Assembly: GCA_963825315.1 (NCBI GenBank)
Contig: CAWGST010000001.1
Span: 270,556-334,555 of the forward strand
DNA from: an uncultured Verrucomicrobiae bacterium
GTDB lineage: Bacteria > Verrucomicrobiota > Verrucomicrobiia > Limisphaerales > Palsa-1400
Length of the DNA: 64,000 nt
Reading direction: 5' to 3'
This document shows, one piece after another, positions 4,460 to 64,000 of the stretch (positions are counted from its first letter, which is position 1; each line of letters begins with the position of its first letter). Below the pieces are notes generated by a model. The model saw only the letters and a program-made list of their open reading frames with translations, was not told the DNA's origin and searched no databases. The position numbers were made by a program, and so were the translations under genes.

Positions 4460-6837
4460 ATATAACGGAAAACAGCACGGCCTTCGGCGCGCCGGGGATC
4501 GAGCCTCGCTGGACCTCCAGCGCCAAGGAGGGATTCGGCACGGCCTATCACACCAGTTGCCGGCTCTGGTTCACCCTGAGCCACGGCATTGTCAACGAGA
4601 TTTATTATCCGTCGGTTGATCAGCCCAACACGCGCGATTTTCAATATCTGATCAGCGACGGCGAATCCTTCTGCCATGAGGAAAAGAGCGACCTGGACCA
4701 TGAGATGGAATATCCGGAGAAGGGCTGCCTTTTTTACCGGCTGACCAATTCGGAGCGCAACGGCCGCTACCGGGTGATCAAACACATATTGACAGACCCG
4801 CACCGCTCGGCGCTGCTCATCCGCACCAAACTGGAGATACAGGACAAAACGCTGCGGGGCAAACTGCGGCTCTACGCGCTGCTGGCGCCGCACATGGAAC
4901 GTTGCGGCGCGGGCAATTCCGGCCGCCGCACGGAAATCAGCGGGAGCAAACTGCTGCACGCGCAACGGGGCAATTTTCACCTGGTTATGGGATGCACGAC
5001 GCATTTTTCGCGGATGTCGGCCGGCTACGCCGGCGCCAGCGACGGCTGGCAGGATTTGCGCAATTTTAAAATGGACTGGGAGTTCGCCTCGGCCGAAAAC
5101 GGCAATATTGCATTGACAGGAGAGATCGACCCGCGGCGGGGGGAAGAATTCACGGTGGTCATTGCCCTGGGCCAAAGCTATCCGAGCGCGGCGGCCAAGT
5201 TGTTGCAATCGCTGGCGGACCCTTTTGAGAAACACCGGGAAACCTACGTGCGGCAATGGAAGCGCACGGTGGTGGACGCGGCGCATGAATTCCACGAAGA
5301 CACCGGCGATGGCGGTTCCACCTACCGGCTCAGCCGCTGCATCCTGCTGGCGCATGAGGACAAGGTCTTCGAAGGCGCCATCGTCGCCTCGATGAGCATT
5401 CCGTGGGGCGAGACAAAAGGGGACAATGACCTGGGAGGGTACCATCTGGTGTGGACGCGCGATCTGGTGCAAAGCGCGACCGCGCTGCTGGCCACGGGCC
5501 AGACGGCCACTCCTTTGCGCGCCATGATCTGGCTGGCGGTCATCCAGCGGCCGGACGGGAGTTTTCCGCAGAATAGCTGGATCAACGGGCGCATGTATTG
5601 GGCCGGATTGCAATTGGATGAAATCGCCGCGCCCATTCTGCTGGCCTGGCGCTTGCGGCGGGAAGGCGTGCGCCTCGGCCAATGCGATCCGTGCATGATG
5701 ATCCGGCGGGCGGCGGCCTTTCTGCTGTTGGAAGGGCCGGTCACGGCGCAGGACCGCTGGGAGGAAAATGCGGGTTACTCGCCCTCCACACTGGCCACGA
5801 TCATCGCCGGGCTAGTCTGCGCGGCGGATTTCGCCCCCCTGGAAGCGGACAAGGAATTTATTCTGGCTTATGCCGACTGGCTCGAAGCGCACATCGAAGA
5901 TTGGACGGTGACGACGCGCGGGGAGTTGGCCGAGGATTTTCCGCGCCATTACGTTCGCATCAACCCGACCGATCCCATCACGCCCGATCCGCACGCCGAC
6001 CCCAATACGACAATGATTCAAATTGCCAACGGCGGCGGGCTGCATGAGGCGCGCAACGTCGTGGGCGGGGATTTTCTGCACTTGGTGCGTTATGGGATAC
6101 GGGCAGCGAGCGATTCGATCGTGCGCTCTTCCCTTGAGGTGATCGACCGCGTGTTGAAGCGGGACTTGCCGCAAGGGCCGTGCTGGCGCCGTTATAATCA
6201 CGACGGCTACGGACAAAAGCCGGACGGCGGCGCTTTCGACGGGACCGGGGAAGGCCGGTCGTGGCCGATTCTGACCGGCGAACGCGGGCATTATGAATTG
6301 GAGGCGGGACAAGATCCGATGCCGTTCATCAAAGCGATGGAAGCCTTTGGCAACCAGGGCGGAATGATATCCGAACAGCTCTGGGACGCCGATGATCTGC
6401 CCAATGACAAAATGAAAAAAGGGCGTCCGACCGGGGCGGCGATGCCGTTGTGCTGGTCGCACGCGGAATACATCTCGCTGGTGCGGAGCCGGCATGACGG
6501 GGTCTGTTTTGATCGGATTGAACCGGCCTACCAACGTTATGTGGCCAAGCCGGTGACTCACCGGCACGAGATGTGGACGTTGCGCCATCAGATCCGGCGC
6601 ATACCACGCAAGAAAATATTGCGGGTCATCCTTGCCGACGCCGCGGCCATTATATGGTCGGCGGACCAGTGGGCAACCACCAACAACATGGAGACGGCCC
6701 GGAACGAGGCGCTCAATTTGTGGTCTGCGGATTTTGCCACTGAAAACTTGCCCCAGGGCGCGGTGCTGGAGTTTACTTTCTTCTGGAAGAAGACCCAGCG
6801 GTGGGAAGGGCGAAATTTTGCGGTGACCATCGAGTAA
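4456..6837 (+). CDS. GH15 glucoamylase / glucodextranase-like glycoside hydrolase
   Basis: 793-aa ORF. The N-terminal FGAPGIEPRWTSSAKEG...VNEIYYPSVDQPNTRDFQYLISDG is typical of the bacterial glucoamylase N-domain. The central region WGETKGDNDLGGYHLVWTRDL...DRWEENAGYSPSTLA matches the GH15 (alpha/alpha)6 catalytic region. Confidence 0.85.
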   Translation: MNITENSTAFGAPGIEPRWTSSAKEGFGTAYHTSCRLWFTLSHGIVNEIYYPSVDQPNTRDFQYLISDGESFCHEEKSDLDHEMEYPEKGCLFYRLTNSERNGRYRVIKHILTDPHRSALLIRTKLEIQDKTLRGKLRLYALLAPHMERCGAGNSGRRTEISGSKLLHAQRGNFHLVMGCTTHFSRMSAGYAGASDGWQDLRNFKMDWEFASAENGNIALTGEIDPRRGEEFTVVIALGQSYPSAAAKLLQSLADPFEKHRETYVRQWKRTVVDAAHEFHEDTGDGGSTYRLSRCILLAHEDKVFEGAIVASMSIPWGETKGDNDLGGYHLVWTRDLVQSATALLATGQTATPLRAMIWLAVIQRPDGSFPQNSWINGRMYWAGLQLDEIAAPILLAWRLRREGVRLGQCDPCMMIRRAAAFLLLEGPVTAQDRWEENAGYSPSTLATIIAGLVCAADFAPLEADKEFILAYADWLEAHIEDWTVTTRGELAEDFPRHYVRINPTDPITPDPHADPNTTMIQIANGGGLHEARNVVGGDFLHLVRYGIRAASDSIVRSSLEVIDRVLKRDLPQGPCWRRYNHDGYGQKPDGGAFDGTGEGRSWPILTGERGHYELEAGQDPMPFIKAMEAFGNQGGMISEQLWDADDLPNDKMKKGRPTGAAMPLCWSHAEYISLVRSRHDGVCFDRIEPAYQRYVAKPVTHRHEMWTLRHQIRRIPRKKILRVILADAAAIIWSADQWATTNNMETARNEALNLWSADFATENLPQGAVLEFTFFWKKTQRWEGRNFAVTIE

Positions 6838-29271: not shown

Positions 29272-31362
29272 ATGATAGATCAGGAAATAACTGCGGTTCA
29301 CAAAACAAAACTGGAAGACCGTATTCATTTTTCACAATTAGCTGCCTATGGTGCCGGGGGCATTATTCCCATTGCCCTCTTCAACATTGCCGGCATACTC
29401 GTAGGCTTGATGGGAAATATAAGCCTGGGGCTCAGTGCCTTCTGGCTGGGCGTAATCTTGATCATCCCGCGTTTGTGGGATGCGCTTTCTGATCCCATCA
29501 TCGGTCACCTTTCCGATAATACAAGGACCCGTTGGGGGCGCCGGCGTCCATACCTGCTGATAGGAGGCATACTGGTTGCTGTCTTTTTTGTGGTCATGTG
29601 GTGGATCCCCAAAGGTGATAGGGTGCGGGTCTGGTTCCCGACAGAAACGGGCTTCCAGGCGTTTCAGCTGGTCTATATTCTTTTCTCCCTCCTGTTATTT
29701 TTCACTGCCTGTAATATTTTTGAGATCCCTCATGGTGCCCTGGGCATGGAGATGACCACTGACTACCACGAACGCACTCGCCTTTTCAGTGCCAAGAGTT
29801 TTTCCGGCAATCTTTTTGCCATGAGCACACCCTGGCTTTTTGCCCTCGCCAACATGAAACTTTTCAAAGGCGCAGGAAACGAAGCCGATGGCATGCGTTA
29901 TGTGTCCATCATGATCGCGGCTTTGATCATCCCCCTCTCTTTCTGGTGGTTTTTCAAATTGCGCGAGCCGGGATTTGCAAATGCGGCAAAGCATGAAAGG
30001 ACCCCCTTCTGGAAAGATATCAAACGCACCGCCAGCAACAGGAACTTTCTTATGCTGACCCTGACAATTTTCACCCTGGCCATGGGTTTCAATTTCGTCC
30101 AGCTTCTCGGGTCATACATCCCTATTTTTTATGTTTTCGGGGGTAACAAAGCTGCGGGCGCTTATCTGCTCGGAATCAACGGTACCATCTGGGCCATCAC
30201 CGGACTACTGGCCGTTTTCCTACTGAACTGGATCAGCCCAAAATTGGGCAAACGGAATACCCTTACGATGGCCATCTTACTCATGTGCCTGGCACAACTC
30301 TCTAAGGTTGTCTGCTACAATCCTAGCTTTCCCTACCTGATCATTATACCCACCGTTCTGCTTTCCGCGGCGATGCTGTTCTTCTTCACACTTGGATCTT
30401 CTATGGTAGGCGATATCTGTGATGAAGATGAATTAAAGACGGGTTATCGCGCCGAGGGAAGTTACTACTCTATATTCTGGTGGTTGATTAAAATGGGAAC
30501 GGCATTTGCCAGCTTTGTCGCAGGCGCACTGATAGTATTGACCGCCTTTGACCAAATCCAGGTTACGAAAGTCGATAGCATCTCGGGGATTATCAGGGGA
30601 ATTCGCAGCGAGGTTCAGTCCTGGGGAGGCGATCAGGCTTTCAGCGGCACCAACACGCAGTTGCTGGGGAAAACCAAAACGCAGGTCACTGAGGCACTCG
30701 ATGAGGCAAAAGAATACGTGAGCTACCTGCAGAAGAAATCTGTAAAACAACAAAACAAATCTGAGGAATCTGTTACTAAATACCAAACCGGCCAGCGCGA
30801 CAGGTTGCTGAATGCATTGTTCGCGGTAAAAGCCTCGGCCGCAGGACTGGAAGAGTTGCGATTGCATTTGGAGAACCTTGGGCCCCAGGCCCTGGACTCC
30901 CAGGTCAAAGCCACTGTGGCAGAAGCCATTCGCCTGACACTTCAAACCAAGGTTGAGAAAGCCAGGATGTATTCGTTTGAGCTTATGTCGCATCTGGAAT
31001 CCAAATCAGAGGAGAGTAAAAACAGTGTAGAGCATTATCAGGAGATCATCAGGAACATCACCACATTAGATAACCACCTTGCCAGCCTGAATGCGGCGTC
31101 ATCCCTGCATATTGTGGACAATGAGCTGGCAACAATAGAAAAGGACATTTTACCGCTGACAAAACAAACACCTTATACCCTTCTGATGATGCGGGTGGTC
31201 GAGATCGGGCTGCCCTTGTTATTGAGCATTTTTTCCATCTTTTTTCTCCTCCGTTACTCGTTGACTGAAAATCGGTCGCAGGAGATCAAAAATCTTTTAA
31301 AGCAACGTAATGAGGAACGTTCAAAAGAGGCCATCAAGGCGACGGGATCAGCGACTGTTTAA
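29272..31362 (+). CDS. GPH-family (MelB/YicJ-like) glycoside:cation symporter with a ~208-aa insertion between the last two TM helices
   Basis: Carries the GPH hallmark DALSDPIIGHLSDNTRTRWGRRRPYLL. I count 11 TM segments up to aa ~426. A hydrophilic heptad-rich segment follows (aa ~427-634), and then the canonical last helix plus tail LLMMRVVEIGLPLLLSIFSIFFLLRYSLTENRSQEI. Confidence 0.8.
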   Translation: MIDQEITAVHKTKLEDRIHFSQLAAYGAGGIIPIALFNIAGILVGLMGNISLGLSAFWLGVILIIPRLWDALSDPIIGHLSDNTRTRWGRRRPYLLIGGILVAVFFVVMWWIPKGDRVRVWFPTETGFQAFQLVYILFSLLLFFTACNIFEIPHGALGMEMTTDYHERTRLFSAKSFSGNLFAMSTPWLFALANMKLFKGAGNEADGMRYVSIMIAALIIPLSFWWFFKLREPGFANAAKHERTPFWKDIKRTASNRNFLMLTLTIFTLAMGFNFVQLLGSYIPIFYVFGGNKAAGAYLLGINGTIWAITGLLAVFLLNWISPKLGKRNTLTMAILLMCLAQLSKVVCYNPSFPYLIIIPTVLLSAAMLFFFTLGSSMVGDICDEDELKTGYRAEGSYYSIFWWLIKMGTAFASFVAGALIVLTAFDQIQVTKVDSISGIIRGIRSEVQSWGGDQAFSGTNTQLLGKTKTQVTEALDEAKEYVSYLQKKSVKQQNKSEESVTKYQTGQRDRLLNALFAVKASAAGLEELRLHLENLGPQALDSQVKATVAEAIRLTLQTKVEKARMYSFELMSHLESKSEESKNSVEHYQEIIRNITTLDNHLASLNAASSLHIVDNELATIEKDILPLTKQTPYTLLMMRVVEIGLPLLLSIFSIFFLLRYSLTENRSQEIKNLLKQRNEERSKEAIKATGSATV

Positions 31363-31425
31363 GCTGGGCCACGAGTATGCCCTTCGGACTGTGACGCTTA
31401 GTAATAAAAATATACAATCAAGAGA

Positions 31426-33862
31426 ATGACATTCAATATTAAAGAAAGCAATTTTTATTTAAATAAAAAGAAAGTGTTCGTGAATTCAGGGGAGATCCAT
31501 TATTTCAGGGTCAGACGGGAACTGTGGGACAAGCACCTGGAAGCAGCCAGGGAGGCCAGGCTTAACCGCCGTCAGCACTTACGTCCCTTGGGCATGGCAC
31601 GAATCAGAGGAAGGCGTTTTTGATTTTGACGGCGCCTCATGCCCGGAACGCGACCTCGAAGGCTGGCTGCAGCGATGCCAGGCCAACGGATTGACCTGCA
31701 TCGTCAAACCGGGGCCGTTTATCCTGGCCGAGACCCGTGGAGCGGGGCTACCGGACTGGTTCATGGATGAATACCGGGAAGAAGTCAAGATGCGCAACAG
31801 TAAGGGTGAGACCGTGCCAGGCGACGGAGTCAGTCTGTTCAACCCAAAATTCCTGGAGAAGGTAACGCATTGGTACGACCAGGTCATGCCCTTGATCAGC
31901 AAAGGCGAAATATCGGCCGGCGGTCCGATTATCATGATGCAGATCTGTAATGAGATCGGTGTATTCTCATGGCTGGCGCACCAGGGAGACTATTCTGAAA
32001 ATGTCAGGGCTCGTTTCATTTCATACTTGTCAACCAAATTCAAAAATATTGCGGAAATTAACGGCCGGTGGGGAACGGTTTACCCGGACTTTGCCGACAT
32101 AGAACTTCCCCCTGACGGCAGGCTTTCTTATGCCTCAAAGGTTGACCGAAGCCGTGATTATGAATGGCATTGTTTCTGGAGAACCTATTACGGCGATTAT
32201 TTAAGAATGCTGACCGGCATGGCCAGGGACAGGGGGGTGACGGTTCCGTTTTATCATAATCTTCCGGGCTGGATCTATGGAAGCGGCTATGAATTCCCGG
32301 TCAATATCACCATGTACCAAGATCTCTTCGGGGATAAGAGCGAGATCATGTTCGGCGTCGATCATATCCCGGAATTCCTTTCGCACCGTAACATGCACGA
32401 TGATCGAATCATAAACGACATCACTTTTGCCATGCAGGGGAACAAGCCGTTGTTTGCCGCCGAGCTCCAGTGCGGCTCCCGGGAATACCACGTGGTGACG
32501 AACCCCCGTGAGATGGAACTTTTCTACAAAGCAAGCATCGCCCACGGACTGACCGGCTGGAATTATTACATGTTCTCCCAGGGGCGAAACCCAAGGCACA
32601 GGGGCTATTCCGGGGAAACGTTCTACTGGTTCACCCCGTTGACGCCGGAAGGCGAGCGCACCAGCGCTTTCCCCCTGATTAAACGGATGAGCAAAATCGT
32701 TAAGACTGCCGAAAACCTGATCGTTGAGGCAAAACGTAAGGCAGAGGTCTGCGTCCTTTTCTATCCGCCTTATTATACCACCGAACTCGAGAGACCTGAA
32801 ACAGGAGCAAGCGAGCTTCTATACAACCCTTCAGCCATCCGCAGGCCGGCCTATTTCGACGGCTTGCTGAAAGTGCTCCAGGTGCTCAACATTGATTATG
32901 ACATGCTGGACCTATGCCAGGCTACAACTGAACAATTAGGCAAATACAAGCAGGTCTGGGCGTTCAGCACCGATGAAATGGATGCCGGGGATCAACAGAC
33001 CCTTGTTGATTATACCAAGGCCGGCGGCATGTTAGTTATGTTTCCGTATCTGCCTGAACGCGGGATGTCGCAAAAGCCTTGCACCATCATACGAGATGCC
33101 ATCTTAGTAAAGCCATCCGAGACGGAGATCATCGATTCTCCCCTGATCGATATATATGACTTGAAGGACATCAAGTGTGCCAATCCCCAAATCATTTATG
33201 ATGAGCCATCGCTCGCCGATGCAGAGGTCATCGCAAGGACGATTCGCGGTTCCGCGTGCGGATTCACAAAAGCCCTTGGCGGCGGCGCCATCATACACCT
33301 GGGAACGTGGATCGGATTTGACACTGAAAGGCATAAAGAAGTGTATGAAGCCATCCTCACGAAATCAGGTTCAAAGCTCAGGCAGGCATCAGCATCCAAT
33401 GACAATATAGCAGTCAGGGAGCGCTTTACGCCTGATCATGCCGCAGTTCTTTTCATTGGCAACTATTACAACGACGAACAGGACGGCAAAGTCACCTATA
33501 CGCATCCTGAAAGCGGGGAGGCCATCAATGTACCATACGCGCAGGACGGGATGATATGGCCGCCCCTTTACGGCGTATTGACCCCGGTGTGCATGGATGT
33601 TTCTGATGGCATTAAGATCCTGCATAGCACCTCGGATATTCTCGGTGTTGCAGGGAAAAACGGCCAGATGGAGATCACCATGTACGGAGATCGAGACCTG
33701 GCCGGGGAGATCGTTTTTGAGGGTGCCATGGTTGATAAGATCAAATCTGCGACAATTTGCGGCAACCCTGTAAAAATGGTTCGTGACGACACACGCATCA
33801 CATTCATATACAGTCACAAACATAAACAAGAAATAACCATAAGTATCAAGATAATATCATGA
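31426..33862 (+). pseudogene. GH35-like (clan GH-A) beta-galactosidase-family hydrolase, reading frame broken near 31558
   Basis: ORF 31426..31623 has FVNSGEIHYFRVRRELWDKHLEAAREA and then junk. The +1 frame continues GLTAVSTYVPWAWHESEEGVFDFDG...CIVKPGPFILAETRGAGLPDWF...MMQICNEIG (ORF 31691..33862). An extra nucleotide around gcc-a-ggc explains the split. Confidence 0.7.
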
Positions 33863-33993
33863 AAAGTCACTCTGTGAACCTCCGTATAACAATTATGTAT
33901 AAGTTGCACAGACTTATACAGCGGGATTACAGAATAACACAGAGGACTCATAATACACTCTTATAACCAATCACTTTGAAAGACTAGAAGAAG

Positions 33994-36900
33994 ATGTCCT
34001 TGAACAACAATATGACTCTTAAGAATTCTCTTGGTTTATCTTTTGCATTCCTTAAAAATGGCTCTCTGAAGAGCATGGAAGCTCATCTTATCAGGATAAA
34101 CCTCAAAGCTGCAACTCCTTTTTCAAAACCAGGTGCGAACCTCTACCTGAGGAAAAGAAAACAACCATTTGAATATACCGCTCTTCTAGGCCCGGAAGGT
34201 AACAGCCTTTTTAAAATGGCCGGCGATGCTTTTATTGCCAGGGGAGGCTGGGCCGGTCTTGATTACACCTGCGTGCTGCGACTGTCAAAGAACAGCCTGA
34301 GCTGGCAGTGGAGTGTTGGTATCAAAAATCTGTCTGACAATCCTGTTGAACTGGATCTGATTTACGTCCAGGACGCCGGGCTGAAGCCAGTGAATGCCGG
34401 GTTGATCAACGAATACTATGTGAGCCAGTACCTGGAACGCCGCATCCTCGAAGATAAAATCTTTGGTGCCGTGGCATGCTGCCGTCAGAACATGAAGGAA
34501 TCAACCGGCCATCCCTGGTTTATGATGGCATGCAAAAACACAGCAGTGGCAGGTAGTGTCGACGGCATGCAGTTTTATGGCAAGACATACCGGGAAACAG
34601 GCATCCCGGAAGGGCTGCTTGCAGATAACCCGGGGGGTGATTATGCCGGGGAATCTTCGGTATTTGCCTTGCGGGAAACACCGTTCAGCCTGGACGCCGG
34701 CGGGGTTCATAACAGTGTTTTTGTTGGTACCTATCTGCCGGATCATCCACAGGCCACATCAGAGGATGATCTTAACCGCTTACCCAGCCTAATGCTCGAA
34801 TGCAATGATGAGACCCCGTTTCAGCACGCGAATGACCTGATTTCCCCGGCAAGGAATTTATTCAATACAACTCCTTTCTTACCGGTGGATGATCTGAATG
34901 ATGATGAGCTTAACCGCTTTTTTGATAAGGAAAGGCGCCATCGTGAAGATGAAAATGGCCGGTTGCTGTCATTCTTCAGCCTGCAAAACAACCATGTCGT
35001 GCTGCGGGCTAAAGAGGTAATGGCTGACCGGCCGCATGCGCACATTATGCAAGCCCGGGCCGGGTATGTGCCTGATGAAAGCATTATGTCCACCACCTCC
35101 TTTGCATTTGGGGTTTTCAATTCACATATAACACAGGGCAATACCATTTTCAACGTGCTGCTCTCGGTCTGCACCAGCCAGTTCAATCTCGCCCCGGAAA
35201 CGGGTCAGCGGATCTTTGTGGAGGTGGATGGAAGGCGCTATTTGCTTGGGGTTCCCTCTGCTTTCGAGATGGGCCTGAATCACTGCCGGTGGATTTATAA
35301 ACACGGCAATTACTGCTTCCAGGTCCGTTCCTGGACCTCTAAAGCCGCTCCGCAGGTCAATATGGACTTTAAAGTGATCAGTGGAAATAAAGTGAAGTTG
35401 CTCATTACTCATGATTTTGATGCTCTTGACGGCTGGACCATTTACCCCGGGAGCAAAGCCGGTGAATATATGGCCAAACCAAAGGCAGACAGCATGATCG
35501 CGGGCAAATTTCCGGATGCACGATTCAGCATTTTGATAAACAGCGCCGGTTCTGATTACCGGGCTTGTGGCGACGAAGCGCTATATCCTCACCATAACGG
35601 CCAGGGAGGCTGTTTGTTCGTCCTCGATGTCCGTGAAACCGCAGATTTCTGCATGAGTTTCATCGGTGAAGCGCATTCTGCCGCCGATGCGGTTAAATTT
35701 GAAGATCCTGATCGTCAGTGGCTCTCAGATTGCCAGGATGCACGCTCTTCCTGGAAAGATTTGAGTTTGAACCTTTCCCTGCAAGGAATCCAGGAAGACA
35801 TCGCAGCCATCCAGGAGATCCTGCCCTGGTATGGCATGAACGCCATCACCCATTTTCTGACCCCTTACGGGCTGGAGCAATTCAGCGGCGCCGCCTGGGG
35901 CACGCGCGATGTGTCCCAGGGGCCGCTTGACCTGCTGTTAACCCTTGAAAAGTATGATGAAGCCAGGCAAGTGTTGTGCATCATATTCTCAAACCAGAAC
36001 CCGGATGGCGGATGGCCGCAATGGTGGATGTTCGACAGCTACTCGAATATCCGGGCTGACAGCTCCCACGGCAATATCTTTCACTGGTGCATCATTGCCC
36101 TCAGCAACTATGTCGAAGTTACCGGCAACCTGAAAATTCTGGACGAGGTCCTTCCTTATTATCATGAAAAAGGTCCTGCCCAGGCTGAGCAAACGCCGCT
36201 CAGCGAGCATGTTGACCGGCTTATTAAAATGATCGTTGATTCATTCATTCCGGGCACTGCATTTGCACCCTTTGGCGGCGGTGACTGGAATGATTCCCTG
36301 CAGCCGGTCAGTAAGGAATTAGCACAACGAATGATCTCAAGCTGGACAGTCGAGATGAATTACCAGGCCTTTTCTCAATACCAATTGGTATATGAACAGA
36401 CCGGTAATACAAGAAAAGCCGGAGAACTGAAAGAAATCTGCGAAAAGATCAAAGCTGATTTCAACAAATATCTGGTCAAGGATGGCGTCGTTGCGGGATA
36501 TGGCCTGGTTGAAGACGACCGTAGCATTAGCGTACTGCTACACCCAAGTGATACCAAAACCGGGATCCGGTACAGTATCTTGCCAATGAACCGTGGCATC
36601 ATCAGCGAGATATTCACTAGCGAACAGGCGCAGCATCACCAGGATCTCATTGAACTGCATCTGAAAGGCCCTGACGGCGCCCGCCTTTTGGACCGTCCGC
36701 TAAGGTACAAAGGGGGTATCCAAACCATTTTCCAGAGGGCGGAAAGCAGCACCTTCTTTGGCCGCGAGATTGGCCTGATGTACGTGCATGAGCATATCCG
36801 TTATGCAGAAGCACAGGCCCGTACAGGCAGGGCGGATGCCTTCATGAAAGCGCTCCGCCAAGCCATCCCGGTGGGGTACAGGGATGTTGTCCCATGCGGG

Positions 36901-37356
36901 GATATCCGCCAGTCAAATTGCTATTACAGCAGCTCGGATGTTATCTTCAGGAACCGTTATGAGGCGGATGAACGTTACGATGAAATACTAACCGGCAAGA
37001 TCACGCTTAGAGGCGGATGGCGGGTGTATTCCAGCGGGCCTGGTATATACATCGGCCTGGTCGTTTCGCGATTGCTTGGCTTGCGGATTGTATCAGGGAA
37101 GATCATCGTCGATCCTGTCATGCCGCATTCCCTGGATGGTTTATCCGCCTCAATGGATTTATTGGATCATGCTGTGACGTTCAATTATGCTGTCAAGGAA
37201 GGTAATTTCAGCCCCAAAGCTGTTTCCATTAATGGCAAGGCCATTCAGTTCAAGTATGAAGAAAACAAATACCGCAAGGGCGGAGCAGTGATGTCAGTTG
37301 AGCAATTTTTAGCCATGCTGGATCGGCAGCAGAATGTTGTGGAGGTAAGGTTATAG
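33994..37356 (+). CDS. Large GH94-like (alpha/alpha)6 glycoside phosphorylase/hydrolase superfamily protein (GH94/GH149/GH161-type)
   Basis: 1120-aa ORF. The central/C-terminal region (SGAAWGTRDVSQGPLDLLL...NPDGGWPQWWMF...GGGDWNDSL...FFGREIGLMYVHEHIRYAEAQARTGRAD) resembles the catalytic barrel of cellobiose-phosphorylase-like enzymes. The exact family cannot be assigned by eye. Confidence 0.55.
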   Translation: MSLNNNMTLKNSLGLSFAFLKNGSLKSMEAHLIRINLKAATPFSKPGANLYLRKRKQPFEYTALLGPEGNSLFKMAGDAFIARGGWAGLDYTCVLRLSKNSLSWQWSVGIKNLSDNPVELDLIYVQDAGLKPVNAGLINEYYVSQYLERRILEDKIFGAVACCRQNMKESTGHPWFMMACKNTAVAGSVDGMQFYGKTYRETGIPEGLLADNPGGDYAGESSVFALRETPFSLDAGGVHNSVFVGTYLPDHPQATSEDDLNRLPSLMLECNDETPFQHANDLISPARNLFNTTPFLPVDDLNDDELNRFFDKERRHREDENGRLLSFFSLQNNHVVLRAKEVMADRPHAHIMQARAGYVPDESIMSTTSFAFGVFNSHITQGNTIFNVLLSVCTSQFNLAPETGQRIFVEVDGRRYLLGVPSAFEMGLNHCRWIYKHGNYCFQVRSWTSKAAPQVNMDFKVISGNKVKLLITHDFDALDGWTIYPGSKAGEYMAKPKADSMIAGKFPDARFSILINSAGSDYRACGDEALYPHHNGQGGCLFVLDVRETADFCMSFIGEAHSAADAVKFEDPDRQWLSDCQDARSSWKDLSLNLSLQGIQEDIAAIQEILPWYGMNAITHFLTPYGLEQFSGAAWGTRDVSQGPLDLLLTLEKYDEARQVLCIIFSNQNPDGGWPQWWMFDSYSNIRADSSHGNIFHWCIIALSNYVEVTGNLKILDEVLPYYHEKGPAQAEQTPLSEHVDRLIKMIVDSFIPGTAFAPFGGGDWNDSLQPVSKELAQRMISSWTVEMNYQAFSQYQLVYEQTGNTRKAGELKEICEKIKADFNKYLVKDGVVAGYGLVEDDRSISVLLHPSDTKTGIRYSILPMNRGIISEIFTSEQAQHHQDLIELHLKGPDGARLLDRPLRYKGGIQTIFQRAESSTFFGREIGLMYVHEHIRYAEAQARTGRADAFMKALRQAIPVGYRDVVPCGDIRQSNCYYSSSDVIFRNRYEADERYDEILTGKITLRGGWRVYSSGPGIYIGLVVSRLLGLRIVSGKIIVDPVMPHSLDGLSASMDLLDHAVTFNYAVKEGNFSPKAVSINGKAIQFKYEENKYRKGGAVMSVEQFLAMLDRQQNVVEVRL

Positions 37357-37362
37357 AGATTC

Positions 37363-37560
37363 TTATTCCTTATGTTCGTCTTCAATTGTCAGTTGGGCGT
37401 AGTAGCGGCCGTTGCGCACCCACAAACCGCGAATCGGGTGCTTGCGCTCGTCGAACACCTTGAGGTAGGGTAACGCCTGATGATGAACTTCAGCCACAAC
37501 GTGTGCGGCGGCGGCCGGAATTGCCTGGCTGCCATTGCTTGGGCTGGTATTGCCTTTCAT
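37363..37560 (-). pseudogene. N-terminal stub (~65 aa) of a tyrosine-integrase-like gene
   Basis: ORF 37363..37578. LPYLKVFDERKHPIRGLWVRNGRYYAQLTIEDE resembles integrase N-terminal arm-binding regions. The frame terminates (HKE*) exactly where G+C drops and the GH94-like gene ends (37356). Confidence 0.4.
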
Positions 37561-37641
37561 GGGGCAACACCAGCACAATCACCAGCACAACGTCAAATGA
37601 GAAGAAGCGTAAAAGTTGTAAGGTGTTCATAATCAATATGT

Positions 37642-37725
37642 GCGCGAGTGGTGGAATGGCAGACACGCCAGACTTAGGATCTGGTCCCGCAGGGGGTGGA
37701 GGTTCGAGTCCTCTCTCGCGCACCA
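37642..37725 (+). tRNA. tRNA-Leu (anticodon UAG), class II with long variable arm, CCA encoded
   Basis: Folded by hand. The acceptor GCGCGAG pairs with CTCGCGC. The anticodon stem is CCAGA/TCTGG with loop CTTAGGA (anticodon TAG). The T-arm is GGAGG-TTCGAGT-CCTCT, followed by a terminal ACCA. Confidence 0.9.
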
Positions 37726-37848
37726 TTTGTCTGCAAAGGCGCGGGCCAATTCCAACTCGATTTCAGTCTTTCGCCACAATCGAACCACTGATTTGCGGCA
37801 AAGAACCGCCAGAAAGGCAAGATGGGATGATAGGAGGTCTGAAAAACC

Positions 37849-37930
37849 CGTAACACCGTAACAAGTGTTGATAGTCAACGACTTAACCCGTAACATTTGC
37901 CGTTACAAACCCGTAACAAGCCCGTTACAT
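37849..37930. repeat. Cluster of six 8-mers: CCGTAACA x4 (direct) and CCGTTACA x2 (= TGTAACGG inverted)
   Basis: CCGTAACA at 37849, 37857, 37889 and 37912. CCGTTACA at 37901 and 37923. The cluster lies 124 nt 3' of the tRNA-Leu. Confidence 0.9.
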
Positions 37931-37956
37931 TAACGATAAAGCCGGCTTCCGAAGTG

Positions 37957-38058
37957 AATTAAGATTTAAGAAGTAAGAATTAAGAAATCTGAAAAACAGC
38001 CAAAAGTCGAACCGGATTCCTCTTTTGACTTCTTAATTCTGCCTTCTTCCTTCTGCCT
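37957..38058. repeat. Inverted pair of AT-rich TTCTTAA-type repeat blocks
   Basis: gaattaagatttaagaagtaagaattaagaaatc (37957-37990) faces cttcttaattctgccttcttccttctgcc (38030-38058). It contains the reverse complement of the 16-mer TTCTTAATTCTTACTT (37972-37987) and the 20-mer CTTCTTAATTCTGCCTTCTT (38030-38049). Confidence 0.85.
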
Positions 38059-38082
38059 TTTTCATGGGTGCCCGGAGAGATC

Positions 38083-38289
38083 ATGGAAACCTTCAATTTC
38101 GGCAAATTGTCCGGTCCGGCGACGCCTTTGAACGGTTCAATCGCCCCCAAGACGGGCCTGTTGAAAGTGACTTTCGGGAGCGGCGCGTCAAAAACAACCG
38201 GCTACGGCGTGATTTTGCTCAATGGAACCAATGGCGGCGGTTATTTTCTGAACAAAACCAATGCCGGAGCGGTCATCTTGGAGCCTTAA
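38083..38289 (+). CDS. Small ORF, possibly an orphan C-terminal fragment of a large surface protein
   Basis: METFNFGKLSGPATPLNGSIAPKTGLLKVTFGSGASKTTGYGVILLNGTNGGGYFLNKTNAGAVILEP is beta-rich and resembles C-termini of large PVC surface proteins as I recall them. It overlaps an alternative-frame ORF (38064..38318). Weak. Confidence 0.25.
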   Translation: METFNFGKLSGPATPLNGSIAPKTGLLKVTFGSGASKTTGYGVILLNGTNGGGYFLNKTNAGAVILEP

Positions 38290-38521
38290 ACGCATCGCAA
38301 CCACCCCCGAATCATTAGCGATGTGCCTGGGAACTCACCAAATAGGCGCACCAAAATAGGCGGGGCGGTTTCGGACGACTGGTTCCGTCGGCGGGACGCC
38401 GACGGATGCGGTCGAGACGACCGCGCTCCTGAAGAAATCGCTAATACGGCTTCCGGCCTATTGACGGTCATGCTAGAGTTTTTTATTTGAAAAAGAATTA
38501 TGAACTTGGAAAAAGCAGTTT

Positions 38522-38644
38522 AACCACGGATGAACACAGATAGACACGGATTGGGAACAGCTTGCGAGGATAGGCGATTTCACCCAAAAGGTGATGCTCT
38601 CCAATGGCATTTTTATCCGTGTTCATCCGTGTCCATCCGTGGTT
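38522..38644. repeat. REP-like inverted repeat: two ~30-nt arms, each built of three CACGGATG-type decamers
   Basis: The left arm aaccacggatgaacacagatagacacggat (38522-38551) faces atccgtgttcatccgtgtccatccgtggtt (38615-38644). About 25 of 30 positions are complementary. It lies just upstream of the folC start. Confidence 0.8.
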
Positions 38645-38671
38645 TGTCTTCCCTCAACTGCCGTTTTTAGG

Positions 38672-40069
38672 ATGAATTACAGCGAAGCCATCCATTTTCT
38701 ATACCAGTTGCGGCTTTTTGGGCTGAGGTTCGGGTTGGAGAAGACGCGCCATTTGGCCGAGCTGGCCGGCCAGCCACAGGACAAACTCCGCTTCATCCAC
38801 GTCGCGGGCACCAACGGCAAAGGGTCCACTTGCGCGATGCTGGAAAACATTTATCGCGCGGCGGGATTGCGCGTCGGTTTGTTTACTTCGCCGCACCTGG
38901 TCTCTTTTGCGGAACGCATCCAGGTGAACCGAAAGTGGATCGCGCCGGAGGACGTGGCGCGGCTGGTGGAGGAGATGAGGAACGCGGCTGCTTTTTCCGG
39001 CGGCGGGGAGGTCTGCCCCACTTTTTTCGAGGTCGTCACGGTGCTGGCGTTGAAATACTTTGCGGAGCAACGGTGCGACCTGGTGGTTTGGGAAACCGGC
39101 CTGGGCGGAAGGCTGGACGCAACCAATATTGTTGCCCCGCTGGCCAGTGTCATCACCAACGTGCAGTTGGACCATCAGCAGTGGCTCGGCAACACCCTGC
39201 CGGAAATCGCCCGCGAAAAAGCGGGGATTATCAAGGACACTGTTCCAATTATCACCGGCACGGAGGACGCGGAGGCCTTGCAGGTGATTGCCGAAACGGC
39301 TCGAAAACATCACGCCCCGCTCAGTGTTGTGACGCCGTCCGACGGGCGGGCGATGGCCCGCTACGAAATCGCGCTGGCGGGGGAGCATCAACGGATGAAC
39401 GCGGCCGTGGCGGTGAGGACGGCGCAAATTCTCGACGGGCAGATTCCGGTTCCTGAAACGGCCCTGCGCCGCGGATTGAAGGAAACGCAGTGGGCCGGGC
39501 GATGCCAGATCATCCAGCGCGGCAACGGGCAAACCGTGTTGCTGGATGGCGCCCATAATCCAGCCGGGGCGCAAGCGCTGGCCGGCGCGTGGCAACGCCA
39601 ATTCGCCGCGAAAAATGGCGCGCTGATTTTGGGCATGATGCGGGACAAGGACGGCGGGGCCATCTGCAAGATTCTGGCGCCGTTGGCGCGGCGGATATTC
39701 CTCGCGCCCATTGGGAGCGAACGCAGCGCAGACCCGCGGTTGCTGGCGGACCCTTGCCGCCGGGCAAATCCAACCGCGCCAATCACCGTTTGCCGGAACC
39801 TGGCCGAAGCCTTCACCAAAGCCGGGGCCGAACCATTTGTGGTGGTGACCGGGTCGCTTTACTTTGTCGGCGAAGCGCTGGAATGGCTCGGCGTGGTCCC
39901 TCCCTCGCGGGAGCGCGCGCTCAACGAATATGGCGGGGCGCCCGCCGGCGATTCGTCCATTGGCGCGGTGACGTTCGGCGTGGAAGACACGTTGAACGAA
40001 CTGGCCGTCCGTCCGGCGGAGAATAAGACGCCTTTGGCAGGCGCCCAAGCCGAGGCTCAAGGCTTTTAA
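38672..40069 (+). CDS. folC: Bifunctional folylpolyglutamate synthase / dihydrofolate synthase
   Basis: The in-frame ATG at 38672 gives MNYSEAIHFLYQL. Has the P-loop HVAGTNGKGST and a Mur-ligase-type middle and C-terminal domains. The ORF-track start at 38591 runs through the inverted repeat. Confidence 0.85.
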   Translation: MNYSEAIHFLYQLRLFGLRFGLEKTRHLAELAGQPQDKLRFIHVAGTNGKGSTCAMLENIYRAAGLRVGLFTSPHLVSFAERIQVNRKWIAPEDVARLVEEMRNAAAFSGGGEVCPTFFEVVTVLALKYFAEQRCDLVVWETGLGGRLDATNIVAPLASVITNVQLDHQQWLGNTLPEIAREKAGIIKDTVPIITGTEDAEALQVIAETARKHHAPLSVVTPSDGRAMARYEIALAGEHQRMNAAVAVRTAQILDGQIPVPETALRRGLKETQWAGRCQIIQRGNGQTVLLDGAHNPAGAQALAGAWQRQFAAKNGALILGMMRDKDGGAICKILAPLARRIFLAPIGSERSADPRLLADPCRRANPTAPITVCRNLAEAFTKAGAEPFVVVTGSLYFVGEALEWLGVVPPSRERALNEYGGAPAGDSSIGAVTFGVEDTLNELAVRPAENKTPLAGAQAEAQGF

Positions 40070-63274: not shown

Positions 63275-63413
63275 GACAACAAAGTAGAGTCTAACGCCAA
63301 ACCAAGCTTCACTTCAATTGGCAAACTATGGACATTTCTTGCGCATGGATACCGCCATTTATGGCCAGTCCCCCCGGTGGGGCAACTCCGTCGAGCCGTG
63401 ACTCTGCTTTTCA

Positions 63414-63444
63414 CTTCTTAATTCTGCCTTCTTAATTCTTACTT
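63414..63444. repeat. TTCTTAA-type AT-rich repeat block
   Basis: cttcttaattctgccttcttaattcttactt. The first 20 nt are identical to 38030-38049, and the last 16 nt are identical to 49125-49140. It overlaps the last codons of the SGNH hydrolase gene. Confidence 0.9.
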
Positions 63445-64000
63445 TTCAAAAGGGGTGCAAGCACTCTGGCAAAAATTTCCGCCTGGCGCGTGAAACCCAG
63501 GTCGGTCGCATGCGAGCCGTCCACACTGCCCTCGCCGTCGTCGCCATAGAGATGTTCGCCGGGAATGTAGTAGAGGTCTTTGACGCCGGATTTTCCCAGC
63601 CGTTCGTAGGCCGCTTTCAATGCCGCCCGATCAGGCAGATGGTAGTATTCCATGCGGCCGGAGATGAGAAAGGAATCCTGCATGGTGCGGTCTTCCACCA
63701 GCACGATCGGCGTGTTCGGATGTGCGGCGCGCAGTTTGTGGACAAAAGGTTCCACGCGCTCCTTGATTTCATCGGCGACCAGGTTGGGCAGACAGTCGAG
63801 GATGTAAATGGACGGATCCAGTTCGGCGAGCAGGCCGGCCATTTCCGGTTCCATTTTCCCATTCCCGGAAAAACCCAGATTGATGGTCGGCCAATTAAAG
63901 CGCCGTCCCAAAATGGCGCTGTGGACCATGCCGGGGCGCGAAGCGGAAAGTCCCTGCAAAATGGAGGTGCCGTAAAACACAATCGGTTTGCGCTCGCCCG
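63432..64000 (-). CDS. SGNH/GDSL-type hydrolase-family protein (N-terminus beyond window end)
   Basis: ORF 63432..63980 and its upstream extension read FYGTSILQG (block I-like), then GFSGNG, then DGSHATDLG (block V DxxH). The ORF is open to the window edge. Confidence 0.55.
   Translation of the reverse strand, partial: GERKPIVFYGTSILQGLSASRPGMVHSAILGRRFNWPTINLGFSGNGKMEPEMAGLLAELDPSIYILDCLPNLVADEIKERVEPFVHKLRAAHPNTPIVLVEDRTMQDSFLISGRMEYYHLPDRAALKAAYERLGKSGVKDLYYIPGEHLYGDDGEGSVDGSHATDLGFTRQAEIFARVLAPLLKSKN

Follow-up and report, generated by a model that had tools for sequence, protein, structure and literature searches.

The six octamers packed into 82 bp just downstream of a tRNA-Leu gene in contig CAWGST010000001.1 of an uncultured Verrucomicrobiae bacterium, of which we analysed a 64-kb stretch (hereafter the window, to which all coordinates refer), probably form an orphan copy of an iteron and hairpin module associated with the replication initiator RepAM, and to judge from sequence comparisons the cluster would be an initiator-binding, origin-like site. 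We regard the module as a cis-acting unit of about 90-160 bp that consists of two abutting 8-bp iterons, a hairpin spacer, and three to five iterons on one helical face. This reading is built on the homology between the window cluster and modules dispersed through related genomes, on the linkage of such modules to genes of the DUF3631 family, and on the co-variation of the 8-mers with the proteins that these genes encode. The family, PF12307/DUF3631, is that of RepAM, by which replication of pMEA300, an integrative element of Amycolatopsis, is initiated (PMC3218068). Purified RepAM, which is unrelated to the known rolling-circle Rep proteins, binds multiple identical 8-bp repeats that can form a hairpin, and all such hairpins hold in their unpaired part a sequence resembling CTTGAT, the nick site of pC194, with the 8-bp repeats flanking (PMC2440964). 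A number of identical 8-bp repeats likewise occur in the window (six copies of CCGTWACA, four of them identical). The parts of the module are as follows.

37783 to 37948, forward strand: the whole module (left flank, iteron pair, palindromic core, iteron array and right flank), as delimited by BLAST homology to dispersed copies.
37848 to 37863, forward strand: distal iteron pair CCGTAACA CCGTAACA, abutting, 8 bp from start to start.
37863 to 37884, no strand assigned: palindromic core or hairpin, AAGTGTTGA-TAG-TCAACGACTT, with GTTGAT at its tip, from DNA folding.
37888 to 37929, forward strand: proximal iteron array CCGTAACA, CCGTTACA, CCGTAACA, CCGTTACA, with starts at 37888, 37900, 37911 and 37922.

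Sequence reading and a pattern search agree in placing the octamers at 37848, 37856, 37888, 37900, 37911 and 37922 (n = 6), one base lower in each case than in the first-pass annotation of this DNA. All six are CCGTWACA on the forward strand, four as CCGTAACA and two, at 37900 and 37922, as CCGTTACA. The latter two had been described as inverted copies, a description that we correct: TGTAACGG is the reverse complement of CCGTTACA, that of CCGTAACA is TGTTACGG, and the CCGTTACA copies differ from CCGTAACA by a central A-to-T change with no change of orientation. The self-complementary part of the octamer is limited to the 5-bp core GTAAC/GTTAC. From start to start the copies are separated by 8, 32, 12, 11 and 11 bp, which places the proximal four about one helical turn apart. 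The clustering itself, as first reported, is real: CCGTWACA occurs seven times in the window, with six of the matches inside the 82 bp, and none of 100 dinucleotide-preserving shuffles reached seven (mean 1.56 per window), so that the octamer is not a common, unclustered word in this DNA. The cluster is also present in other assemblies, being the same base for base in three further public ones of the organism (L001, L002 and L004), while a fourth contig, L003, stops within it and carries a single-nucleotide polymorphism (SNP) in the last copy, CCGTTACG.

Between the two repeat sets lies a spacer of 24 nt (37864-37887, AGTGTTGATAGTCAACGACTTAAC), an imperfect palindrome with 62% A+T as against about 58% G+C for the genome. 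DNA folding finds the sole stable local hairpin at 37863-37884, with 9 + 4 pairs, and GTTGAT (37867-37872), identical to CTTGAT at five of six positions, stands at its tip. The spacer taken by itself as 26 nt folds with -5.5 kcal/mol (RNA parameters), and over all 96 nt of the region the z-score for folding comes to only -0.74. Within the spacer, the 18-mer TTGATAGTCAACGACTTA (37868-37885) is retained in sister modules whose 8-mers all differ.

The association with RepAM is seen at the Pedosphaera locus L050, where a module of 2 + 5 CCGTTACA copies lies 183 bp upstream of, and co-oriented with, the gene for a 450-residue protein that has a DUF3631 domain (E 1.8e-44) as well as Walker A and B motifs. 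The homologues of this protein at E<1e-20 number more than 2,670; those whose source is named come from Verrucomicrobiota or Limisphaerales, and some are labelled 'putative DNA primase/helicase' by JGI. Homologues that are 58-67% identical have the same upstream architecture, built from CCGTTACA at L304, CCGTCACA at L306 and CCGTTARG at L310 and L311. A previous candidate reading of the modules as merely short non-coding repeats, which went with the lack of a shared neighbour gene, was changed by the DUF3631 neighbour at L050.

To describe this linkage over a larger set, we used 66 distinct DUF3631 loci, namely 64 from a metagenome scan (which contributed 80 DUF3631 loci) and look-ups, together with L050 and one more. 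The detector called a module where an exact 6-mer pair 8-10 bp apart was followed, after a gap of 28-62 bp, by two or more additional copies spaced by 9-13 or 19-25 bp; run on 316 tiles of the window, it fires at the real site alone. A module was detected at 32 of the 66 loci, in 17 cases upstream of the gene and co-oriented with it, in 12 just downstream and inverted, and in 3 otherwise arranged. All 32 possess the abutting pair with 8-mers specific to the locus, and the alleles include CCGTTACA, CCGTCACA, CCGTGACA, CCGTTGCA, CCGCAACA, CCGTAAGG, CCGTTAGG, CCGTCAGG and CGGTTACA. Because modules stand both upstream and downstream of the gene, they are better understood as a cis-site such as an origin than as a promoter-operator only, and autoregulation is possible as well. 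The gene-linked copy closest to the window, L325, reads CCGTCACA CCGTCACA AGTGTTGATGATCAAGGACTTAAC CCGTCACA tttg CCGTCACA... and is separated by about 300 nt from the DUF3631 gene downstream of it; its spacing (8, 32, 12) and its core agree with those of the window, with 83% identity over 37843-37929, and to this same interval the homology of the window to gene-linked modules (L325, L324 and L340) is confined. As there is no DUF3631 gene in the window and the homology to gene-linked modules ends at the module edges, we regard the window copy as an orphan.

The 8-mers appear to co-vary with the protein, chiefly with its C-terminal half. In pairs of proteins with the same 8-mer, the C-terminal DUF3631 half is 67.4% identical, as compared with 55.2% in pairs with different 8-mers, and the corresponding values for the N-terminal half are 71.4% and 65.7%; since the sequences are phylogenetically related, this co-variation is suggestive only. 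For the L050 protein (P0007), the AlphaFold model has a mean predicted local distance difference test (pLDDT) score of 73.5, with residues 147-221 at low confidence, and its top matches in the PDB are the NrS-1 C-terminal region, adeno-associated virus (AAV) Rep40, large T antigen, PriRep1 and ORC/Cdc6, all of them weak and all with superfamily 3 (SF3) helicase or initiator folds. The C-terminal domain (residues about 340-425 of the model) is predicted to be a winged helix. Sequence searches of the PDB and NCBIfam with P0007 returned nothing. No conserved neighbour of the Verrucomicrobiota DUF3631 genes was found in the flanks examined, including the int, xis and tra genes expected of an actinomycete integrative and conjugative element (AICE); HTH_31 regulators adjoin two of the DUF3631 genes. 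Among more distant viral RepAM-like genes (29-43% identity), the module geometry was seen at 2 of 21. A similar two-part array also occurs in Firmicutes (L083 and L100), right after the stop codon of genes for 800-residue VapE-like primase-helicases.

The module belongs to a family dispersed through the Verrucomicrobia. When one genome per species was scanned for CCGTWACA in three copies spaced by 10-13 bp, at least 115 loci were returned, where about 0.5 would be expected by chance (our own estimate, for uniform base composition). In other phyla, many of the matches are no more than tandem or coding repeats. The neighbours at a locus on a Micromonospora plasmid (L077) have no Pfam match. Among metagenome-assembled genomes (MAGs) of Verrucomicrobia, by comparison, the layout of the window is repeated exactly, two copies 8-9 bp apart being followed, across a gap of 32-50 bp, by three or four at 10-12 bp, in Verrucomicrobiae MFD00008.bin.2.151, Pedosphaera sp. 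RYN_620, MFD01112.bin.2.19 and a Limisphaerales bin; in related modules, arrays of two to five copies with 10-13 bp spacing occupy the position of the proximal array. The closest relatives among the matches listed are L042 and L052, both from MFD01112.bin.2.19, whose BLAST homology to the window covers 37783-37895 and 37885-37948 and ends there, beginning 58 bp past the 3' end of the tRNA. In the sister modules at these two loci the core TTGATAGTCAACGACTTA is kept, and all 8-mers are switched together to CGGTAACA, CCGCAACA or GTGCTACA. A constant core with co-varying repeats is a pattern typical of specificity repeats, or iterons.

Many copies of the module are without a gene, and these can share a single 8-mer allele within a genome. 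MFD00008.bin.2.151 has at least 11 such modules, and Pedosphaera RYN_620 has six modules with a RepAM gene at only one of them. Some copies are associated with small mobile repeats. A miniature inverted-repeat transposable element (MITE) of about 237 bp (L052:3858-4095; L042 from about 1345 onwards), with terminal inverted repeats GTTCCTCAACGTTTTCGGTGGA, splits a window-type module between iterons 3 and 4 and is flanked by a 9-bp target duplication, CAACATTTG. Several module copies in MFD00008.bin.2.151 lie within a repeat of at least about 330 bp that is bounded by a terminus similar to that of the MITE, GGTTCTTCGCTGTTTTCGGTGGA, and the copy at L036 is enclosed by further inverted termini, GAATGGCGCTTAGATAAGG. 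No protein family is shared by the flanks of about 25 Verrucomicrobia modules (all-against-all BLAST, and Pfam on 101 open reading frames (ORFs)).

The core of the module has relatives in viruses. The palindrome cGTAAsTCGTTGATAATCAACGACTTACG, which contains the 18-mer TTGATAGTCAACGACTTA, is present in more than 120 uncultivated viral contigs (L184-L303), where it is mostly intergenic and often occurs in several copies per contig, with up to six in 6.7 kb (L229). The viral palindromes are often paired across GC-rich spacers, sometimes with other short iterons following, and their halves stay complementary through compensatory changes. No strand bias of the motif relative to gene orientation was detected, and no protein family is common to the neighbourhoods of the viral cores, the best being found at 13 of about 120 loci. 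BLAST of the palindrome against 50,697 isolate phage records gave no match, and literature searches for the octamer and core sequences returned only primers and an unrelated terminator table. The window itself holds a weaker second core, TTGATTATGAACACCTTA, on the reverse strand at 37619-37636, with three mismatches (0.05 expected per window); it lies 6 bp upstream of the tRNA-Leu gene and is inverted relative to 37868-37885, leaving the tRNA bracketed by two core-like sequences.

If the origin-like reading is correct, a RepAM-like protein, with a P-loop ATPase in its N-terminal half and DUF3631 in its C-terminal half, would recognise the 8-mers through its C-terminal part and oligomerise across both repeat sets, distorting or extruding the central palindrome with its GTTGAT tip. 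Opening or nicking of the palindrome would then start replication and might regulate the gene too, as has been proposed for pMEA300. With its allele CCGTAACA/CCGTTACA and its core intact, the window copy could be bound, and melted or nicked, only in trans, by a RepAM protein whose gene lies at another place in the genome or arrives on an incoming element; alternatively, it may be an inert relic.

Several observations weigh against this interpretation. A tblastn search of the window detected no DUF3631 homologue (best E 0.22), and there is accordingly no cognate protein in cis, nor was the exact CCGTAACA allele found beside a DUF3631 gene among the loci examined. The repeats of pMEA300 are inverted, form a hairpin and lie within the repAM coding sequence, whereas those of the window are direct and intergenic. 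The TTGAT palindrome is confined to a minority, 'window-type' class of spacers among the DUF3631-linked modules; most have a different spacer of 42-43 nt, with a small GC-clamped hairpin, a T-run and no TTGAT. No module was detected at 34 of the 66 DUF3631 loci, a number to be read with the facts that many of the contigs are short and that the detector needs exact 6-mers. Finally, the fold matches of P0007 are statistically weak (best E 2e-3, TM score about 0.2-0.3).

We also considered how orphan modules in general might act in trans. They may be hitchhikers that consist of an origin only, or sinks that titrate or handcuff the initiator, or decoys for the initiator of invading elements, and we hold such roles to be doubtful. 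As hitchhikers, they would undergo replication or mobilisation each time a matching RepAM element became active, with some copies riding on MITE-like repeats; as titration or handcuffing sinks, they would set the availability of the initiator; and as decoy origins, they would soak up the initiators of invaders, a natural form of 'phage-encoded resistance'. Were orphans to act in trans in any of these ways, the palindromic core in more than 120 viral contigs would mark a wider cis-element of the phages of these hosts.

The alternative that survives best is that the module is a promoter-operator cassette in which a transcription factor, possibly an autoregulating RepAM, controls a promoter in or next to the spacer, which in the window would serve the 68-residue ORF and folC to the right of the cluster. 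The 17 modules that lie upstream of DUF3631 genes in the same orientation are in keeping with this, as are several Pedosphaera and MFD00008 copies between divergent genes and the viral arrays of 2-(23 nt)-3/4 geometry that stop 16-26 nt short of the start codons of genes for DUF1492 proteins and helicases; that RepAM binding may have a regulatory function has also been suggested (PMC2440964). We nevertheless find it unlikely, given that the 12 inverted modules past the 3' end of a DUF3631 gene make no sense as the promoter of that gene, that copies in MITE-like repeats have random neighbours, and that a spacer of 23-24 nt is too short for both promoter hexamers. A sigma-70-like match, TTGATA-17-TAACAT (9/12), is no better than in shuffled sequence (1 found, 1.2 expected). 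The viral arrays in question (L123, L128, L130, L164 and L180) lie on low-GC phage contigs, sometimes as two divergent modules, and are followed by genes for DUF1492 (RinA-like) proteins or DEAD/ResIII helicases; their spacer, cccgcataaataaagggtttt, is similar to the one that most DUF3631-linked modules have.

The window copy could also be non-functional, either as a chance product of slippage or duplication of an 8-mer or as the decaying fragment of a mobile element. The partner gene was not found in the window, one strain variant already has the SNP in the last copy, and the L052 sister copy, split by the MITE of about 237 bp, indicates that modules can be disrupted without obvious harm. Against these points stand the six perfect CCGTWACA copies, whose spacing equals that of gene-linked modules to within one base, and the dozens of orphan copies in related genomes that retain both repeat sets and the core, which is not expected under neutral decay. 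Chance is excluded by the shuffles and by the scan (at least 115 loci against about 0.5 expected, the latter our own estimate under uniform composition), and we consider a non-functional sequence improbable overall.

The neighbourhood of the cluster bears on a further alternative, the one favoured in the first-pass annotation, namely that the octamers are the leftover arm-type sites for an integrase, with or without Xis, of a decayed integrative element at the tRNA-Leu gene. This gene, tRNA-Leu(TAG), occupies 37642-37725, and Rfam (E up to 1) finds nothing but the tRNA over 36500-39500. To its left, on the 5' side, a reverse-strand ORF of 65-71 codons (37363-37578) has a few homologues, of 88-114 residues, that resemble integrase N-termini, and its end and the stop codon of a 1,2-beta-oligoglucan-phosphorylase-like (SOGP) gene are 6 bp apart. 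A protein search with this integrase remnant returned six short homologues only, of 65-114 residues, and no full-length integrase with this N-terminus was returned among 5.8 billion proteins; Pfam and PHROGs gave nothing significant for either the remnant or the 68-residue ORF. The remnant family shares the conserved motif RGLWVRNGRYYAQ and is always divergent, at the 5' side of a tRNA gene (Leu-TAG, Leu-CAG or Pro-TGG), as at L005:1587-2038 beside tRNA-Leu(CAG) and L006:40-515 beside tRNA-Pro. Just upstream of the int start, a direct repeat of two CACYAGCACAA copies is found in the window (37568-37590), in L005 and in L006. A CCGTWACA cluster is absent downstream of the L005 tRNA, and the L006 sequence extends just 39 bp past its tRNA.

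Farther left, the stretch 29272-37356 is a low-GC island (G+C about 0.49-0.50, compared with 0.58-0.60) with genes for a major facilitator superfamily (MFS) sugar transporter, a GH35/42-like enzyme and the 1,2-beta-oligoglucan phosphorylase (SOGP) homologue. Probably this is an island for the utilisation of beta-1,2-glucan that was acquired horizontally and replaced the rest of an integrated element, and it is possible that the locus was once host to a mobile element. On the right, the cluster is followed by an AT-rich stretch, the 68-residue ORF (38083-38289), and then folC and sdhCAB. The ORF is rich in Gly, Asn and Thr, and it is identical in four public contigs, each time between the module and folC. 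Between the cluster and this ORF there is a 22-nt inverted repeat (37968-37989 and 38027-38048, 86% complementary; RNA fold z-score -2.2), built from CTTCTTAATTCTGCCTTCTT, a motif that returns at 63390-63446 (82% over 57 nt); the repeats based on it may constitute a separate small intergenic repeat family. A tRNA gene is nearby at 2 of 17 Verrucomicrobia module loci and at 3 of 50 DUF3631 loci, L340 being one of the three. At L074:2854-3025 and L340:528-1817, modules lie within or directly after clusters of seven to nine tRNA genes, and the order at L340, from tRNA cluster to window-type module to RepAM-like gene, resembles the order of tRNA and module in the window.

The remnant and the low-GC island that adjoin the tRNA speak for arm-type sites, and an array on a viral contig (L151, about 4771-4814, reverse strand) has three CCGTAACA copies with 12-bp spacing that stop 12 nt short of the start codon of a tyrosine integrase (431 residues, DUF6538 and Phage_integrase); in that unrelated context a role of this octamer as an arm-type site is plausible. 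For the window we judge this explanation very improbable. The remnant lies 5' of the tRNA and the cluster 3' of it, and the repeat that travels with this integrase family is CACYAGCACAA, conserved in two copies by the remnant homologues at L005 and L006, and not the octamer, which forms no cluster downstream of the L005 tRNA. The Verrucomicrobia modules have no common flanking protein family, 15 of 17 module loci and 47 of 50 DUF3631 loci are without a tRNA, a Phage_integrase match occurs in just 1 of 101 flanking ORFs, and the modules co-vary with DUF3631 proteins instead. The arms of lambda-type attP sites are, moreover, much less compact than this layout of two sets around a palindrome in 82 bp. 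Lambda cos/pac, P1 parS, dif/Xer, FNR or Fur boxes, T7-type promoters, CRISPR-like arrays and sigma-54 or extracytoplasmic-function (ECF) promoters were dropped, as they fit poorly in sequence or context. What endures of the first-pass proposal is the general claim of a multi-site protein-binding region, for which iterons had been among the examples given and which is supported because the same architecture, with co-varying 8-mers, recurs beside genes of the DUF3631/RepAM family.

To our knowledge, the only settings in which initiators of the RepAM type and their 8-bp repeat sites have been described are a few actinomycete integrative elements, and replication by RepAM combines a rolling-circle-like nick motif with the lack of an HUH protein. 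The RepAM family is very large in the Verrucomicrobiota, and a little-studied initiator system is extended to a new phylum. In these bacteria its cis-site takes the form of an intergenic module that is easy to recognise and has hypervariable 8-mers; gene-less copies of the module are scattered through the genomes, raising the question of what role orphan initiator sites play in the chromosome. The gene-linked modules form a natural set of matched protein and site pairs from which the recognition code and the mechanism of initiation may be worked out. For annotation, it follows that clusters of repeats beside tRNA genes should not automatically be taken as the arm sites of an attachment site.

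Among known systems, the attP arms of lambda resemble the window cluster in their short direct repeats, about 10-11 bp apart and in two sets, with a possible bend site between the sets, as the core differs from the IHF consensus WATCAANNNNTTR at one position only; unlike them, the window has neither a full integrase gene nor a core site overlapping the 3' end of the tRNA, its repeats do not accompany the remnant homologues, and the whole array is only 82 bp. In satellite phage P4, the octamer iterons TGTTCACC of ori and crr, which are found in both orientations, are bound by the C-terminal domain of the SF3-type alpha primase-helicase; the second cluster, crr, lies away from the gene, and the phage integrates at a tRNA-Leu gene. 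There is no relationship of sequence or family to P4, and the window is without an alpha-like gene. The origins of Staphylococcus aureus pathogenicity islands and other phage-inducible chromosomal islands (SaPI/PICI) differ in that their iterons are of 5-6 nt, with at least two per side and opposed, compared with the 8-mers in one orientation here, and in their initiator family; the window also has no rep gene, and its centre is a conserved palindrome instead of a simple AT-rich tract. They are similar in having element-specific iterons matched to the initiator (in SaPI/PICI a Rep helicase with a C-terminal winged-helix domain), in the arrangement of short iterons in two sets around a more AT-rich centre (here 2 + 4 around the 24-nt spacer), and in the position of the site directly beside the initiator gene, as in the 12 modules just 3' of the gene (PMC9371898).

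The closest counterpart remains the RepAM system of pMEA300. The hosts are Actinomycetales there and Verrucomicrobiota here; the inverted hairpin arms of pMEA300 are replaced by direct repeats, 2 + 4, and its site lies inside the 3' end of repAM, whereas the modules are intergenic, upstream or downstream of the gene, with many Verrucomicrobial copies, that of the window included, being gene-less orphans. The predicted hairpin between the repeats of the window, with GTTGAT at its tip, may correspond to the pMEA300-type hairpins, which carry a sequence like CTTGAT in their unpaired part (PMC2440964). What the two have in common is the partner family PF12307/DUF3631, which accompanies the modules in relatives, the presence of several identical 8-bp repeats, and a setting of mobile elements and tRNA genes that is plausible for the window too.

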